A stretch of DNA of 64,000 nucleotides. Source: Parcubacteria group bacterium RIFCSPLOWO2_01_FULL_48_18 (GTDB lineage: Bacteria; Patescibacteriota; Minisyncoccia; UBA6257; WO2-01-48-18). Positions 5,120-28,682 of the stretch are shown here, piece by piece. The DNA is taken from the NCBI GenBank assembly GCA_001824435.1, contig MHXH01000013.1:2346-66345 (forward strand), written 5' to 3'. The translations under genes were made by a program, and so were the position numbers. Position 1 is the stretch's first letter. The number at the start of each line of letters is the position of its first letter. Below the pieces are notes generated by a model that ran no database searches, was not told the origin of the DNA, and worked only from the letters and a program-made list of their open reading frames with translations.

Positions 5120-5659
5120 TCAAAGAGTCGTTATCTGCCCGGCATTATTCACGCGGATCGTGATTGAAGAGCCGTCGGGCGTCTCCAGCACGACGTCCGC
5201 GTTCGTAATGAGCGGATCGCCGTTGATGATGATTTGCGGTTGCGGAGGAATATAGACGATGTCAGCTAGCGTTGTTCCGGCCGCCTGAATGCTGACGCCG
5301 GTCGGAAGATCATATACTTCCGGGTAGCCGTGCTCATCTAAATCTTCCGACGTCCCGCCGTATGCCAGGTCAGCGGTGGCGCAATCCGGAGGAGCGGAAG
5401 GGTCGTCTCGAAACAGCGCGTATCTATTGTTTGCCGTATCGATGTTGATGCCGTAGCCGCATGGCCGGCTTGGCAGGAGAAATGTCTGGAGCGACTTCGC
5501 CTTCACTCTATTAAAATTCGCCACCAGCAGGGATTTTTCGCGAAACAGCGCAATTTGGCGCTCGCCAGTGCGGTTAACTCCCAGCGTAATGGCCATAAGC
5601 ATTGCCACAATGCCGATCGTCACCAGCATTTCCACAAGCGAGAATCCTCGTGCGTTCAT
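5120..5659 (-). CDS. type IV pilin-like / pseudopilin
   Basis: Canonical prepilin N-terminus MNARG|FSLVEMLVTIGIVAMLMAI. Confidence 0.75.
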   Translation of the reverse strand: MNARGFSLVEMLVTIGIVAMLMAITLGVNRTGERQIALFREKSLLVANFNRVKAKSLQTFLLPSRPCGYGINIDTANNRYALFRDDPSAPPDCATADLAYGGTSEDLDEHGYPEVYDLPTGVSIQAAGTTLADIVYIPPQPQIIINGDPLITNADVVLETPDGSSITIRVNNAGQITTL

Positions 5660-5720
5660 CCTTCTATTATAGAGGATCGGCGGTCAAAATTGAAGCGCGG
5701 AGAGATTCTAAAGGAGAAAT

Positions 5721-6557
5721 TTAATTGAAATACCCGAAGAGTTTAAGGTAGCCGCTTACAAGTTCTTCGCCGAAGAAAAATAAAGTGAACATGCCGGCAA
5801 CGATGAACGGCGCGAACGGAACCGTGTCTTTCATGGTTTTTTTCCGCGTGAATAGGAGTGGAAGAGAGAACAGGGAACCGAGAATAAATGCGAGCGCGAG
5901 AGAGAGAGCGATATCCGGCCAGCCCAAAAATATGCCGGCCGCCCCTCCCAATTTTAAATCTCCCATACCCATGGCCCGGCCGCGGCTTCCCGCAATGATG
6001 ATGCCGAAAAATGCGATTGCGGCAAAAGAGGCAAGCAGGCGGTTGATGATGATGCTTTTTTGAAAACCGAGCAGAAGAGCAAATTTTCCAATCGTAGAGC
6101 CGCCTGTGAAACCGATATCCGGTGCAGCGCTCAAGGCGGCGGCATAAATAAGCCCCACCAGAATAATCGCCACGTTGAGCTCGTCCGGCACCACGCGGTC
6201 GCGAAAATCAATGACGGCAATGAGAATCAAGATCGTGGAGAAAAGAAGCCAGCATAGGACGGAGATTTCAAAGAATGCGCTTCCTTCAAGCAGGGTCGGC
6301 GCGAGCCCGCCTATGATTTCTTTCAGACGCGATGGGACTTCAGCGAAGACGACTCCACTTATCAGTTCAACAACAGGATACTGGACTGACAATGGCCCTT
6401 TGCAGCCGCGGCACCTTCCTTTTTGGATAAGGTAGCTGACCAGGGGGATAAGTTCGTACCACCCAAGCGTTTTTCGACAGTATGGACAATGCGACCGTCC
6501 GAGCAGGCTTCTTTTATTGAAAACAAAACCGCCGACCCGATACCGAATCGACAGCAC
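5721..6557 (-). CDS. pilD: prepilin leader peptidase / N-methyltransferase (A24 family)
   Basis: N-terminal CxxC...CxxC zinc-binding region (CPYCRKTL...CRGCKG) followed by ~7 TM helices. It sits between pilin genes. Confidence 0.85.
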   Translation of the reverse strand: MLSIRYRVGGFVFNKRSLLGRSHCPYCRKTLGWYELIPLVSYLIQKGRCRGCKGPLSVQYPVVELISGVVFAEVPSRLKEIIGGLAPTLLEGSAFFEISVLCWLLFSTILILIAVIDFRDRVVPDELNVAIILVGLIYAAALSAAPDIGFTGGSTIGKFALLLGFQKSIIINRLLASFAAIAFFGIIIAGSRGRAMGMGDLKLGGAAGIFLGWPDIALSLALAFILGSLFSLPLLFTRKKTMKDTVPFAPFIVAGMFTLFFFGEELVSGYLKLFGYFN

Positions 6558-6619
6558 GTTGATGAAGCTTCCGACAGCCGTTCCCAGGATAAATAAAAAA
6601 GGGTAATAAAAAAACGGGA

Positions 6620-6700
6620 ACAGAATTTAGGATTTAGAATTTAGAATTTAGGATTTAGGCAGTTCGCTAAATGCTAAATACCAAAAGCCAAATGCTCGGC
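6620..6700. repeat. tandem heptamer repeats (GAATTTAG/GGATTTAG x5; then CTAAATG-like x3)
   Basis: AGAATTTAGGATTTAGAATTTAGAATTTAGGATTTAGG...CTAAATGCTAAATACCAAAAGCCAAATGC lies between the pilD start and the pilA stop. Confidence 0.8.
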
Positions 6701-6707
6701 GCAAAAA

Positions 6708-7190
6708 TCAGAACTGCACGCAATATACCGGCGTGTCGCAATCGATGCCATAAATGGTGCCTATCGGGCTGTTGTCGAGGGCAGGGTTCGTAGGATCTTC
6801 AAGCGTCGCCGTCATCACATAGTTTAAACAGATGGAGCCGGCGCAGTTGCCCGGAGCATAATCATATGTGGCGCCCGTTTGTACGTTCAGCGGGTCATTG
6901 GAGAGGGAAAAGACTCCGATGTTTGCGTTTATAATTGCTCCTTCCATGGCGCTCCATCCGGTTACATTCGGATAACCGCTCTTCCCCGTGAAATAAAGCT
7001 CAAGGGCAGTGCGGGCCTGATGGAGGTCGGCAAGGCGGCGCGCGTCCCTGCCGCGGCTCCTGAAGCTCCCGGAGCCAACCAAAACAACCGATGCGAGCAT
7101 GCCGATAATCGAAATGACAATAAGCATTTCGATGAGGGTAAATCCTCTTTGATCGAGTTGAGGTTGTAATGCGTCAGAATTTGCCATCAT
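6708..7190 (-). CDS. pilA: type IV pilin (major pilin paralog 2)
   Basis: ...QRG|FTLIEMLIVISIIGMLASVVLVG, a textbook T4a pilin N-terminus. The C-terminal disulfide loop is CDTPVYCVQF. Confidence 0.85.
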   Translation of the reverse strand: MMANSDALQPQLDQRGFTLIEMLIVISIIGMLASVVLVGSGSFRSRGRDARRLADLHQARTALELYFTGKSGYPNVTGWSAMEGAIINANIGVFSLSNDPLNVQTGATYDYAPGNCAGSICLNYVMTATLEDPTNPALDNSPIGTIYGIDCDTPVYCVQF

Positions 7191-7267
7191 ATGGAGTTTG
7201 AAAATTAAGATTTTTTAATCCCCGATCGAATCGAGGGGCTAAAAAATATTACGTTCACTCGTGACGC

Positions 7268-26739: not shown

Positions 26740-28245
26740 TTGATGAAATTTTCTGTTCCGGGAGAAGTCTTGACCGCATTGCATACACTCAATGATGCCG
26801 GCTTCGAAGCGTATATTGTCGGCGGCTGCGTGCGGGATTTATTGCTCGGTAAAGAACCGAAAGATTGGGATATTACCACGAACGCAAAACCCGAAGAAAT
26901 TCAGAAGCTCTTTTCGGAAAGCGTGTATGAAAATACATTCGGCACGGTGGGCGTAAAGACCGGATCGGAAAATCCGCGCCTTGCCATTGTCGAAATTACT
27001 ACGTACCGCAAAGAAGAAAAATACAGCGATAAGCGCCATCCGGATAAACTCGAATTTACCGACTCGATTGAAGAAGACCTCAAACGACGAGATTTCACCA
27101 TTAATGCTATTGCCATGAAATTAACCAGCTACCAGCTACCTCTCGAAACTGCTCGGGGCAAGCAAGCTACAAGCTACAAGCTCATCGATCCTTTTGGTGG
27201 TCAGGGAGACCTTGAAAAAAAACTTGTTCGAACAGTGGGTAATCCCGAGAATCGATTTTCCGAAGACGCCCTGCGCCTCCTGCGCGCTCCGCGCTTCGCG
27301 ACAGCGCTTGGTTTCTCAACTGAAGAAGAAACCGCCCGAGCGATTAAAGCAAACGCTTCATGGCTCGCGGCGATTTCAAAAGAACGGATACGAGACGAAT
27401 TCGTTCACATTATCATGGCTGAACAGGCAGCCGAAGGGATTTGGCTTCTTGAAGAACTACGTCTGTTAGAACACATCATTCCCGAACTTCGCGAGGGCAT
27501 CGGCGTAGGACAGAACAAACACCATGTGTATACGGTTTTCGAACATAACCTGAAATCCCTTGCATATGCGGCTCTAAACGATTTTTCTCTGGATGTGCGG
27601 CTCGCATCTCTCTTGCATGATGTCGGAAAACCGCGGACGAAGCGCGGCGAGGGGCCTGATTGCACGTTTTATGGCCACCAAGTCGTCGGAGAAAGAATGG
27701 CGCTTGAAGTGTTTGACCGCCTCCGATTTTCCAGAAAAACCGTCGAGCGCGTCGCGCTTCTCATCCGCGAGCATATGTTTGTCTATGACGTCGGCACGGT
27801 AACTCCTGCCGGCGTTCGGCGTCTCATTCGCCGCGTCAGTATGGAAAATATCGATGATCTTTTTCAACTCCGCGAAGCGGACAGGATCGGTTCCGGTGTC
27901 CCCAAAGCGCAGCCGTACCGCTTGCGGCATTTGAAATTCATGGTTGAAAAAGTTTCCCGCGATCCGATTTCCGTAAAAATGCTTGCAGTCCGCGGCGACG
28001 ACGTGATGAAAATTTTAAACATCGAGCCAGGGCCGAAAATCGGGCTCATTCTTAATGCGCTGTTGGGCGAGGCGCTGGAAAATCCAAACATCAATACAAA
28101 AACGATTCTCTCAAAACGGGTTGCAGAATTAGGAACAATGAGCGATGATGATCTGAAGAAACTTGCCGAGAAAGGCTTGGGAACAAAAGAAGGGCTGGAA
28201 ACCGAAGCCGAAGAAGAAATAAAGAAAAAACATTATGTAAAATGA
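26740..28245 (+). CDS. cca: CCA-adding tRNA nucleotidyltransferase with HD domain
   Basis: GGCVRDLLLGKEPKDWDITT polymerase-beta head motif, RRDFTINA, and an HD domain (HDVGK...). 501 aa. Confidence 0.85.
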   Translation: MMKFSVPGEVLTALHTLNDAGFEAYIVGGCVRDLLLGKEPKDWDITTNAKPEEIQKLFSESVYENTFGTVGVKTGSENPRLAIVEITTYRKEEKYSDKRHPDKLEFTDSIEEDLKRRDFTINAIAMKLTSYQLPLETARGKQATSYKLIDPFGGQGDLEKKLVRTVGNPENRFSEDALRLLRAPRFATALGFSTEEETARAIKANASWLAAISKERIRDEFVHIIMAEQAAEGIWLLEELRLLEHIIPELREGIGVGQNKHHVYTVFEHNLKSLAYAALNDFSLDVRLASLLHDVGKPRTKRGEGPDCTFYGHQVVGERMALEVFDRLRFSRKTVERVALLIREHMFVYDVGTVTPAGVRRLIRRVSMENIDDLFQLREADRIGSGVPKAQPYRLRHLKFMVEKVSRDPISVKMLAVRGDDVMKILNIEPGPKIGLILNALLGEALENPNINTKTILSKRVAELGTMSDDDLKKLAEKGLGTKEGLETEAEEEIKKKHYVK

Positions 28246-28378
28246 AGCTCCACGGGCTCACGCCCGCGGTATCCTTTCCGAATTGAGGGTGGAGCGAAAT
28301 CCGCCGAAGCAGAAGATTGGCTCGCATTCAGCCGCGGGCTTACGCCCACGGTCTTCTGCGAAGGCGGATAAATCTTCG
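28243..28378. repeat. ~135-bp structured intergenic repeat, copy 1 (second copy at 52210..52345)
   Basis: About 90% identical to 52210..52345. It begins at the TGA stop of cca and contains an inverted repeat (ATCCGCCGAAGCAGAAG ... CTTCTGCGAAGGCGGAT) and a direct repeat CGGGCT(C/T)ACGCCC. Confidence 0.8.
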
Positions 28379-28454: not shown

Positions 28455-28506
28455 ACCGGGCTGCAGTATAGTAGTATACCGGTAGTACGGGAGACCAGCC
28501 CCGCAC
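28455..28506 (+). pseudogene. degenerate partial tRNA copy (pseudo-tRNA, ends ...GCACCA)
   Basis: GGGCTGCAGTATAGTAGTATACCGGTAGTACGGGAGACCAGCCCCGCACCA resembles the 5' half of the adjacent tRNA-Pro (GTATAGTA..GGTAGTACG) but lacks a full anticodon arm and T-arm. Confidence 0.35.
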
Positions 28507-28515
28507 CAGAATTAT

Positions 28516-28586
28516 CGGGGTATAGTATAGTGGTAGTACGCTGGCTTCGGGAGTCAGTAGCCCCGGTTCGAATCCGGGTACCCCGA
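28516..28586 (+). tRNA. tRNA-Pro (anticodon CGG)
   Basis: CGGGGTATAGTATAGTGGTAGTACGCTGGCTTCGGGAGTCAGTAGCCCCGGTTCGAATCCGGGTACCCCGA. It has a 7-bp acceptor CGGGGTA/TACCCCG, anticodon stem CTGGC/GTCAG with loop TTCGGGA, and T-arm CCCGG-TTCGAAT-CCGGG. Confidence 0.8.
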
Positions 28587-28599
28587 CAGAGAATTTTTG

Positions 28600-28682
28600 G
28601 TGCGTAGTTCGGGTGCCCCGTACCAGGGCGAAGCTCGGTGCGGGATAAACTCCAAGACCGGGTTTGATTCCCGGCACCCCGA
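28600..28682 (+). ncRNA. tRNA-like element (intact T-arm + acceptor 3' strand, 5' half not foldable by eye); possible second tRNA or pseudo-tRNA
   Basis: Ends ...GACCGGGTTTGATTCCCGGCACCCCGA, giving T-arm CCGGG-TTTGATT-CCCGG and an acceptor 3' strand plus discriminator A. I could not find a complementary 5' acceptor strand. Confidence 0.3.

Follow-up and report, generated by a model that had tools for sequence, protein, structure and literature searches.

A cross-phylum family of short hairpin-ended repeats, very probably mobile and perhaps PATE-like, with two copies at gene ends in a Parcubacteria genome

The repeat described here occurs twice in a 64,000-nucleotide stretch of DNA (hereafter the window) from Parcubacteria group bacterium RIFCSPLOWO2_01_FULL_48_18 (assembly GCA_001824435.1, contig MHXH01000013.1, positions 2,346 to 66,345 of the forward strand). 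The closest known kind of element is the palindrome-associated transposable element (PATE), exemplified by the Geobacillus stearothermophilus elements that share ISGst ends and by elements of Haloquadratum and Halanaerobium; REP/REPIN repeats with RAYT transposases, classical MITEs, integron attC sites, intrinsic terminators and curated RNA families each differ in at least one tested defining feature. The defining features of the IS200/IS605 insertion sequences and of PATEs have been described (PMC7290912). PATEs are reported often to encode omega-type guide RNAs, and TTTAT is the documented target, or target-adjacent motif (TAM), of the IS605-family element ISGst2 (PMC10055086). The active strand of IS200/IS605-type elements is expected on the lagging-strand template (PMC5027513). 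The repeat resembles PATEs in its length (100-300 nt), in having no open reading frame (ORF), inverted repeats or target duplication, in its hairpin near each end, its adjoining TTTAT and its orientation bias, and in that mobilization in trans is presumed. In IS200/IS605 elements a subterminal hairpin at each end is needed for TnpA binding, and in IS608 both ends carry the same hairpin sequence. Unlike PATEs, it has no parent insertion sequence or TnpA with these ends that we could find, recurs with identical 21-mers in at least 10 phyla, has a mosaic interior of optional hairpin modules that takes it from 46 to ~290 nt, and carries an ATGA end that would regenerate a stop codon; these are its unusual traits. 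Collectively, our data indicate that the family is very probably a non-autonomous mobile repeat, and they moderately favor a PATE-like, single-strand mechanism of the IS200/IS605 type, whose active strand and enzyme, like the mechanism itself, we infer.

The original prediction was of a structured repeat of about 135 bp, present twice, each copy starting at a gene's stop codon. The pair is real, with slightly shifted coordinates: copy A (28242-28372) and copy B (52209-52339), both given on the plus strand, are identical at 123 of 131 positions (93.9%), with eight substitutions and no indel. The shared stretch extends from one base to the left of ATGAAGC to the end of GGCGGATAAA, with no meaningful similarity past ATAAA, and the flanks of the two copies are unrelated up to the element ends. 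Copy A reads 5'-ATGAAGCTCC ... GAAGGCGG-3' on the plus strand. The features of the two copies are as follows.

28242 to 28367, minus strand: copy A, element proper (126 nt), delimited by sequence, identity, a match to a model built from copies outside the window, and the family boundary logos.
28368 to 28372, minus strand: ATAAA on the plus strand (TTTAT on the minus strand) at copy A, the pentanucleotide adjoining the proposed left end, read as a TAM-like target.
28243 to 28245, plus strand: TGA stop of the cca-like gene (26743-28245), at element positions 2-4.
28250 to 28269, no strand assigned: hairpin 1 of copy A (CCACGGGC-TCAC-GCCCGCGG), 8 nt from the element end.
28332 to 28351, no strand assigned: hairpin 2 of copy A (CCGCGGGC-TTAC-GCCCACGG), 16 nt from the other element end.
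28299 to 28315 with 28353 to 28369, no strand assigned: long-range helix, ATCCGCC-GAA-GCAGAAG / CTTCTGC-GAA-GGCGGAT, enclosing hairpin 2.
52209 to 52334, minus strand: copy B, element proper (126 nt), between the tandem Wzy_C/TPR paralogues 49882-52212 and 52354-54585.
52335 to 52339, minus strand: ATAAA on the plus strand (TTTAT on the minus strand) at copy B, the proposed target pentanucleotide.
52210 to 52212, plus strand: TGA stop of the Wzy_C/TPR gene 49882-52212, apparently supplied by the element.
52217 to 52236, no strand assigned: hairpin 1 of copy B (TCGTGGGC-CCAC-GCTTGCGG), with four C-to-T differences from copy A.
52299 to 52318, no strand assigned: hairpin 2 of copy B, its sequence unchanged from copy A.

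The internal inverted repeat noticed at the outset is the long-range helix, in which ATCCGCCGAAGCAGAAG (28299-28315) faces CTTCTGCGAAGGCGGAT (28353-28369), and the direct repeat CGGGCT(C/T)ACGCCC turned out to be two copies of one hairpin (28250-28269 and 28332-28351), hairpin 2 repeating hairpin 1 almost exactly and in the same direction. In copy A the first bases of hairpin 1 can pair otherwise, as a helix of 28247-28253 with 28289-28295; in copy B all of hairpin 1 is paired on the plus strand, with G-T pairs, and the minus strand has four A-C mismatches. Folded as RNA and compared with shuffles, copy A gives z = -3.8 on each strand and copy B z = -2.5, while DNA parameters give z = -4.4 for the minus strand. 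Antisense ORFs do cross both copies (28091-28327 and 51965-52294, minus strand), and the identity of the copies at the DNA level would account for the peptide that they share. Probes of 24 and 35 nt, allowed up to three mismatches, found no third site in the 64-kb window (0 of 100 shuffles gave any match), and an unfiltered covariance-model search across the entire window found nothing beyond copies A and B.

Outside the window the repeat is abundant. Two pattern scans list at least 230 copies, and the family statistics given here come from among the matches listed. A degenerate 20-mer from the long helix matched at least 120 contigs in the JGI metagenomes, and the 3'-terminal 21-mer matched at least 117 contigs from at least 65 species-level metagenome-assembled genomes (MAGs) among the GTDB species representatives. 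The labels of these MAGs span at least 10 phyla among the matches listed, with many Desulfobacterota and with Omnitrophota, Planctomycetota (including Scalindua), Chloroflexota, Acidobacteriota, Fibrobacterota, Binatia, Bacteroidota, Firestonebacteria and FCPU426, and Patescibacteria MAGs (Kerfeldbacteria, 'Saccharibacteria' and others) were matched as well. Several of the matched contigs are 50 kb to 2.2 Mb long, making mis-binning unlikely. A single MAG holds up to 11 of the matches listed, and median identity is 91% between copies of one MAG versus 65% across MAGs, which is the pattern that genome-specific amplification would leave. Both window copies belong to this family: a covariance model, R1, built from 34 members with the window copies left out, matches copy A end to end (28242-28372, 79 bits, E = 9e-19) and copy B over its full length (69 bits, E = 4e-16). 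A 22-mer specific to the window copies had no match in the GTDB genomes.

Two window-type patterns and one 5'-module pattern had no match in viral contigs, and BLAST against plasmid and phage collections returned none. Matches in viral contigs being nearly absent, the element is not phage-borne as a rule. The general 21-mer has a sole match among 2.9 million viral contigs (L271:7821-7966, IMGVR_UViG_3300031576_000136), a typical copy of 146 nt in a 41.8-kb contig classed as viral. No account of the family appeared in Rfam, in the plasmid and phage collections or, by sequence-string and keyword searches, in the searchable literature; that is, we could not find this large and very probably mobile family described.

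Assemblies show runs of N or contig breaks inside the element, the usual mark of a multi-copy repeat. The strain of the window recurs in several metagenome assemblies, where one contig stops within the element and one scaffold is gapped there. Because the element breaks assemblies, seeds spurious ORFs and gives stop codons to real genes, annotation and population-genomic work should mask it. If our reading holds, uncultured bacteria of anaerobic sediment and groundwater would harbor a very widespread family of hairpin-ended mobile elements, present even in reduced Patescibacteria genomes, and the family could serve as a marker of horizontal transfer and strain variation.

The ends of the element are sharply defined and asymmetric, 5'-ATGRAGCC ... 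GGCGG-3'. At the 5' end, 98% of copies have A at position 0, with TGRAGCC next, and after the 8 nt of ATG(G/A)AGCC a hairpin begins, CCACGGGC-NNN(N)-GCCCGTGG; at the opposite end almost the same hairpin is followed by TCTTCTGCG(A/T)AGGCGG and then by ATAAA. In flank logos of 154 and 239 copies, conservation is lost within one to two bases of either end, and at the far end conservation falls to background right past GGCGGATAAA. In 115 copies that were not ascertained on these bases, the pentanucleotide after GGCGG is ATAAA in 93 and ATAAN in 108. Terminal inverted repeats are absent, ATGRAGCC... and ...GGCGG(ATAAA) not being mutually complementary, and the logos contain no repeated flank of the kind that a target duplication leaves; the 2-nt AT at the junction is ambiguous and may be microhomology.

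The near-identical 8-bp hairpins, set in from the two ends by 8 nt and 16 nt, are kept by compensatory changes. Across the 34 members, 94.5% of helix cells are paired versus 90.2% after shuffling, with none of 500 shuffles reaching 94.5%, and slid controls are 32-49% paired. Changes on both sides occur in 11 pairs, five of them among the eight pairs of hairpin 2, where one position varies as A-U, C-G and U-A. The terminal hexamer, moreover, pairs and covaries with the hexamer just past hairpin 1 (ATGGAG/CTCCAT versus ATGAAG/CTTCAT). Of the structural checks proposed at the outset, covariance modeling recovered both copies, with helices that covary across the family; the Rfam comparison gave no match.

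Copies fall into size classes of ~46, 82, 110-130, 150-167, 184, 219 and 258 nt, the difference being made by optional internal hairpin modules. One such module, a 40-110-nt hairpin (CCTGCACGCCGAAGTGC...GGCACGCAGGCGTGG), is nested in hairpin 2 at L090, L120, L068, L065, L155, L042, L232 and L176. L070:650-819, from the same sample as the strain of the window, is a likely further copy with a different 40-nt insert in the hairpin-2 loop, and L193:1582-1616 is a lone perfect palindrome, ATGGAGCCCCACGGGTGTACCCGTGGGGCTCCAT, which consists of the end module only and lies ~1 kb from a full 167-nt copy. In sister families the 5' module RTGGAGCCCCACGGG..CCCGTGG is common and other sequence stands at the opposite end, which suggests that these repeats may form a superfamily of exchangeable end modules. 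Sister-family ends read ...GGCTTTCTGCTGCCGGGGTAAAA or ...GGCCCGAGTCGAAGGGTCGA (L047, minus strand, ~2030-2150 from the end; L099; L018; L052; L139; L038).

Evidence for movement comes from comparison of sites. When the element is removed from the filled site L115:2212-2361, the flanks align without a gap to the empty orthologous site in L238, as read by eye. Two further shared sites carry a 183-nt or 110-nt form in one genome and a 46-nt form in another; the missing length equals exactly the stretch that separates the two direct hairpins, which means that the short forms are produced in place by deletion. A MITE- or REP-like mobile element (a miniature inverted-repeat transposable element or a repetitive extragenic palindrome) had been among the first candidates, and the dispersal of hundreds of copies, their sharp ends, the subfamilies specific to single genomes and the filled/empty site pair favor an element of that general, mobile kind. 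Orientation relative to neighboring genes is random (with E for the element and arrowheads for the genes, <E< 36, >E> 29, >E< 15 and <E> 13).

The asymmetric ends, the lack of inverted repeats and of a duplication, the same hairpin at both ends and the fixed pentanucleotide place the family as PATE-like. In such a mechanism the element would move as single-stranded DNA in the IS200/IS605 manner, with an HUH/Y1-type transposase acting in trans. The proposed top strand would be laid out as 5'-(TTTAT)/CCGCCTTCGCAGAAGA-hairpin ... hairpin-GGCTTCAT/-3', where slashes mark the element ends: the left end would insert directly after TTTAT, with a hairpin 16 nt inside it, and the right end, with its hairpin 8 nt inside, would read hairpin-GGCT(C/T)CAT/-3'. 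In copy A this would make the minus strand the top strand, running from a left end at 28367 to a right end at 28242. Flanks of a candidate mobilizer would read TTTAT/CCGCC...hairpin and hairpin...GGCTCCAT. Local GC skew, which serves only as a proxy, puts the proposed top strand on the G-rich strand at 69 of 98 loci (p = 7e-5) and, with the coding-strand effect cancelled, at 37 of 47 (p = 1e-4), in the same direction for both 5' types (ATGA and ATGG); this fits an active strand on the lagging-strand template. That the termini are nearly identical in different phyla points to a common mobilizing enzyme and possibly to an RNA scaffold, both of which would be of interest for work on HUH transposases and guide RNAs.

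Several observations weigh against the PATE-like account. No cognate transposase was found, and none of the ~250 copies encloses a gene. The 1.74 Mb surrounding the copies yielded no IS200-type TnpA, searched for with an approximate probe, and no TnpB. Clustering of neighboring proteins found no family that recurs beside the element, only housekeeping proteins (ABC-F, TPR, PilZ, radical SAM, DprA) and spurious ORFs that run across the element. A transposase would not need an interior so conserved and so structured, and identical 21-mers in several phyla are odd for a non-autonomous element. The filled/empty comparison is a single pair with flanks 82% identical, its exact junction resting on the gapless reading, and the empty site at L238 is AAAAT/ATTTT, similar to ATAAA and not identical, so that the pre-insertion target is confirmed only approximately. 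About 25-30% of all copies are in the minority GC-skew orientation, among them both window copies (balanced window skew +0.059, copies on the plus strand). Wobble pairs likewise do not settle which strand folds, since the window pair contradicts the family: family-wide, the two hairpins have 78 A-C mismatches (G-T on the other strand) versus 41 G-T, whereas the C/T differences between the window copies keep G-U pairs on the plus strand. The latter are equally explained by leading-strand C-to-T mutation, which makes the folded strand unreadable from them, and the G-U versus A-C asymmetry was rejected as a strand indicator because it is contradictory and confounded by strand-biased C-to-T mutation. 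A left-end guide/target pairing of AAGA (next to the hairpin) with TTAT, which resembles the AAAG/TTAC pairing of IS608, was also dropped, as a sister family covaries inconsistently with it.

The position of the window copies at stop codons follows from the ends of the element. Each copy had been thought to start at the stop codon of the upstream gene, and the plus-strand ORFs 26743-28245 and 49882-52212 do end on TGA; this TGA, rather than being the gene's own, is part of the element's terminus, ATGAAGC. Deletion of the 126-nt element in silico gives ...CAT TAT GTA AAA TAA A... at cca and ...CCA ATG GAA TAA A... at the ligase paralogue, and because this restores an in-frame TAA, the target ATAAA would have overlapped the native stop (xxA/TAA). 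On insertion, the ATGA end of the element would re-create a stop at the same codon (xxA/TGA) and leave the protein unchanged. The copies thus "start at the stop codon" because the right end of the element is ATGA on the coding strand and the target ATAAA lay over TAA; since element and target both begin with AT, the same logic applies in all three equivalent junction registers. Apparent restoration of the stop codon is shown here, from these reconstructed junctions, at both window genes.

Across the family, the TGA within the conserved terminus ATGAAGC is present with or without an upstream gene. An ORF of at least 80 codons ends on the element's TGA in 12 of 53 ATGA-type copies, and an ORF reads into the element in only 9 of 116 ATGG-type copies, where translation would run on for up to 30 codons. 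The ATGA subtype prevails among Patescibacteria-type copies, whose genomes have little intergenic space. If restoration is true, a single-strand transposon could enter the gene ends of compact genomes with the protein unaltered.

Other routes of movement have to be weighed first, namely rolling-circle transposition (IS91- or Helitron-like), copying by a reverse transcriptase, or a new recombinase that recognizes hairpins. No transposase of any kind is linked to the element, its ends are asymmetric with a subterminal hairpin near one end, it inserts beside an A/T-rich site, and its sister families join one common end module to other sequence at the far end, all of which such routes would accommodate. 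However, there is no variable A-tail, conservation stopping after ATAAA, and the paired end hairpins, fixed pentanucleotide and replication-strand bias together are the signature of the IS200/IS605 type; we therefore regard movement by these other means as unlikely. A SINE-like poly-A tail in particular (as in short interspersed elements) is ruled out, because conservation ends after exactly ATAAA.

A related idea, which we consider rather doubtful, is that the interior is itself an RNA scaffold, such as an omega-type guide that would end at the right end (...GGCTCCAU), read into the flank and be used in trans by a TnpB/IscB-like or other nuclease, or that a new, broadly distributed hairpin-recognizing enzyme serves the element; either would explain the identical 21-mers and hairpins over at least 10 phyla, including tiny Patescibacteria genomes. 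Like the omega RNAs of TnpB and IscB, which IS200/IS605 elements carry at their right ends, the element is a conserved, covarying structure of ~100-150 nt that ends exactly at the transposon right end; unlike them, it has no tnpB or iscB near any copy and matches nothing in Rfam on either strand.

It is similarly doubtful that the element is a REP/REPIN-like repeat served by a domesticated, single-copy transposase of the RAYT type, that is, by HUH chemistry maintained by the host. Such repeats are likewise abundant, extragenic and hairpin-based, vary from species to species and are presumably served in trans by an HUH tyrosine enzyme, and the present element is high-copy and extragenic with genome-specific subfamilies. 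RayT-like Y1_Tnp genes occur at 4 of ~240 loci, in one case at a distance of 87 nt from a copy, and the RayT-like family is abundant in the same kinds of metagenome, several members carrying the JGI label 'REP element-mobilizing transposase RayT'. However, the RayT-like genes examined are flanked by another inverted repeat, GGGGTCAGACTTAA / TTAAGTCTGACCCC, and none was present in the 117 genome loci listed or in the window. The element itself also departs from the REP/REPIN pattern: it lacks the conserved GTAG-type head, its hairpins are direct whereas a REPIN is two REPs in inverted arrangement, and it is a modular unit of 126-290 nt as opposed to a palindrome of 20-40 nt. The RayT-like Y1_Tnp was rejected as the mobilizer since it has its own flanking repeats and is single-copy in a conserved neighborhood. 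This protein (PF01797, 314 aa) is encoded at L244-L260 (2501-3445 in most) and at L049:2716-3669, and several of these contigs end directly past the gene.

We consider it very unlikely that the repeat acts at the transcript level, as the 3' untranslated region (UTR) stabilizer, terminator module or multi-copy small RNA that the original prediction had also proposed. In keeping with such a role, the predicted fold is strong (z about -3.8), the helices covary, each window copy points the same way as its upstream gene, the eight differences between the two all keep plus-strand pairing or sit in a loop, and terminator-like hairpins follow several family members. Yet orientation relative to genes is random family-wide, there is no conserved upstream promoter and no T-tract, and promoter and terminator scans of the window copies are at chance or shuffle level. 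Watson-Crick covariation is strand-symmetric, and the wobble-type mismatches counted above favor the opposite strand (78 versus 41). The presence/absence polymorphism and the forms deleted in situ also speak against such a role, as does the placement of copy B within a tandem gene pair, 14 nt (52340-52353) ahead of the next start codon. Rfam 15 at gathering thresholds had no match in the window or in 20 loci; in a search of both strands of three element forms, none was found at E <=10 on the window copy and those on the two others were at chance level. An intrinsic terminator or 3'-UTR element is not supported, given the random orientation, an end that is ATAAA and terminator-like sites at shuffle expectation. 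That the two copies are the remnant of a local segmental duplication, as their being the only two in the 64-kb window might suggest, can be dismissed, because their flanks are unrelated up to the element ends and more than 230 related copies lie outside the window, hundreds of them in unrelated genomes.

Among named classes of repeat, classical MITEs such as Correia/NEMIS, Nezha and Chunjie have terminal inverted repeats and target-site duplications. Like them, the element is a short non-coding repeat in many copies, which genomes tolerate between genes or within operons; it was rejected as one of them because both defining features are absent. BIMEs of Escherichia coli and BOX elements of Streptococcus pneumoniae each occur in a narrow range of taxa and lack a defined target pentanucleotide. 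With these the family has in common optional subunits, strong predicted structure and an intergenic location, often just after genes; unlike them, it has fixed asymmetric termini and crosses phyla. Integron attC sites (RYYYAAC ... GTTRRRY, in co-oriented arrays) were excluded by inspection, since the termini are non-complementary, GTTRRRY is missing, and copies are solitary and in both orientations. A tRNA-like 3' end was considered because the reverse complement of the 5' end, ...GGGGCTCCAT, looks alike, and was rejected because the hairpin is not T-arm-like.

Upstream of copy A lies a cca-type nucleotidyltransferase with PolyA_pol, PolyA_pol_RNAbd and HD domains, whose closest homologues, from Parcubacteria-type MAGs, are at most 67% identical, too far for comparison at the DNA level. 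No empty version of either window site was found, all strains found carrying the element. The Wzy_C/TPR paralogues around copy B (49882-54585) encode 776 and 743 aa and lie 141 nt apart, 131 of which are the element with its target pentanucleotide, and this spacing is unchanged in 10 of 10 places looked up. The next start codon, at 52354, is 14 nt past ATAAA, so any operon transcript must cross copy B.

Two further features of the locus were noted. On either side of a tRNA-Pro gene (28516-28587) lie tRNA-like fragments (28457-28510 and 28598-28681), for neither of which ARAGORN or Rfam made a call. The upstream fragment, GTATAGTAGTATACCGGTAGTACGG, is similar to the 5' half of tRNA-Pro itself, and the downstream stretch of 84 nt, which starts with GGTGC and ends with GGGTTTGATTCCCGGCACCCC, looks like a T-arm plus acceptor. 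The public MAG GCA_001824395.1 (L261, MHXF01000057.1) carries the window locus with no genes called at 5232-7203. In these 2 kb, which follow the second Wzy_C paralogue, two genes are present in other assemblies of the strain, a 271-aa ORF and a DAO-family oxidase.

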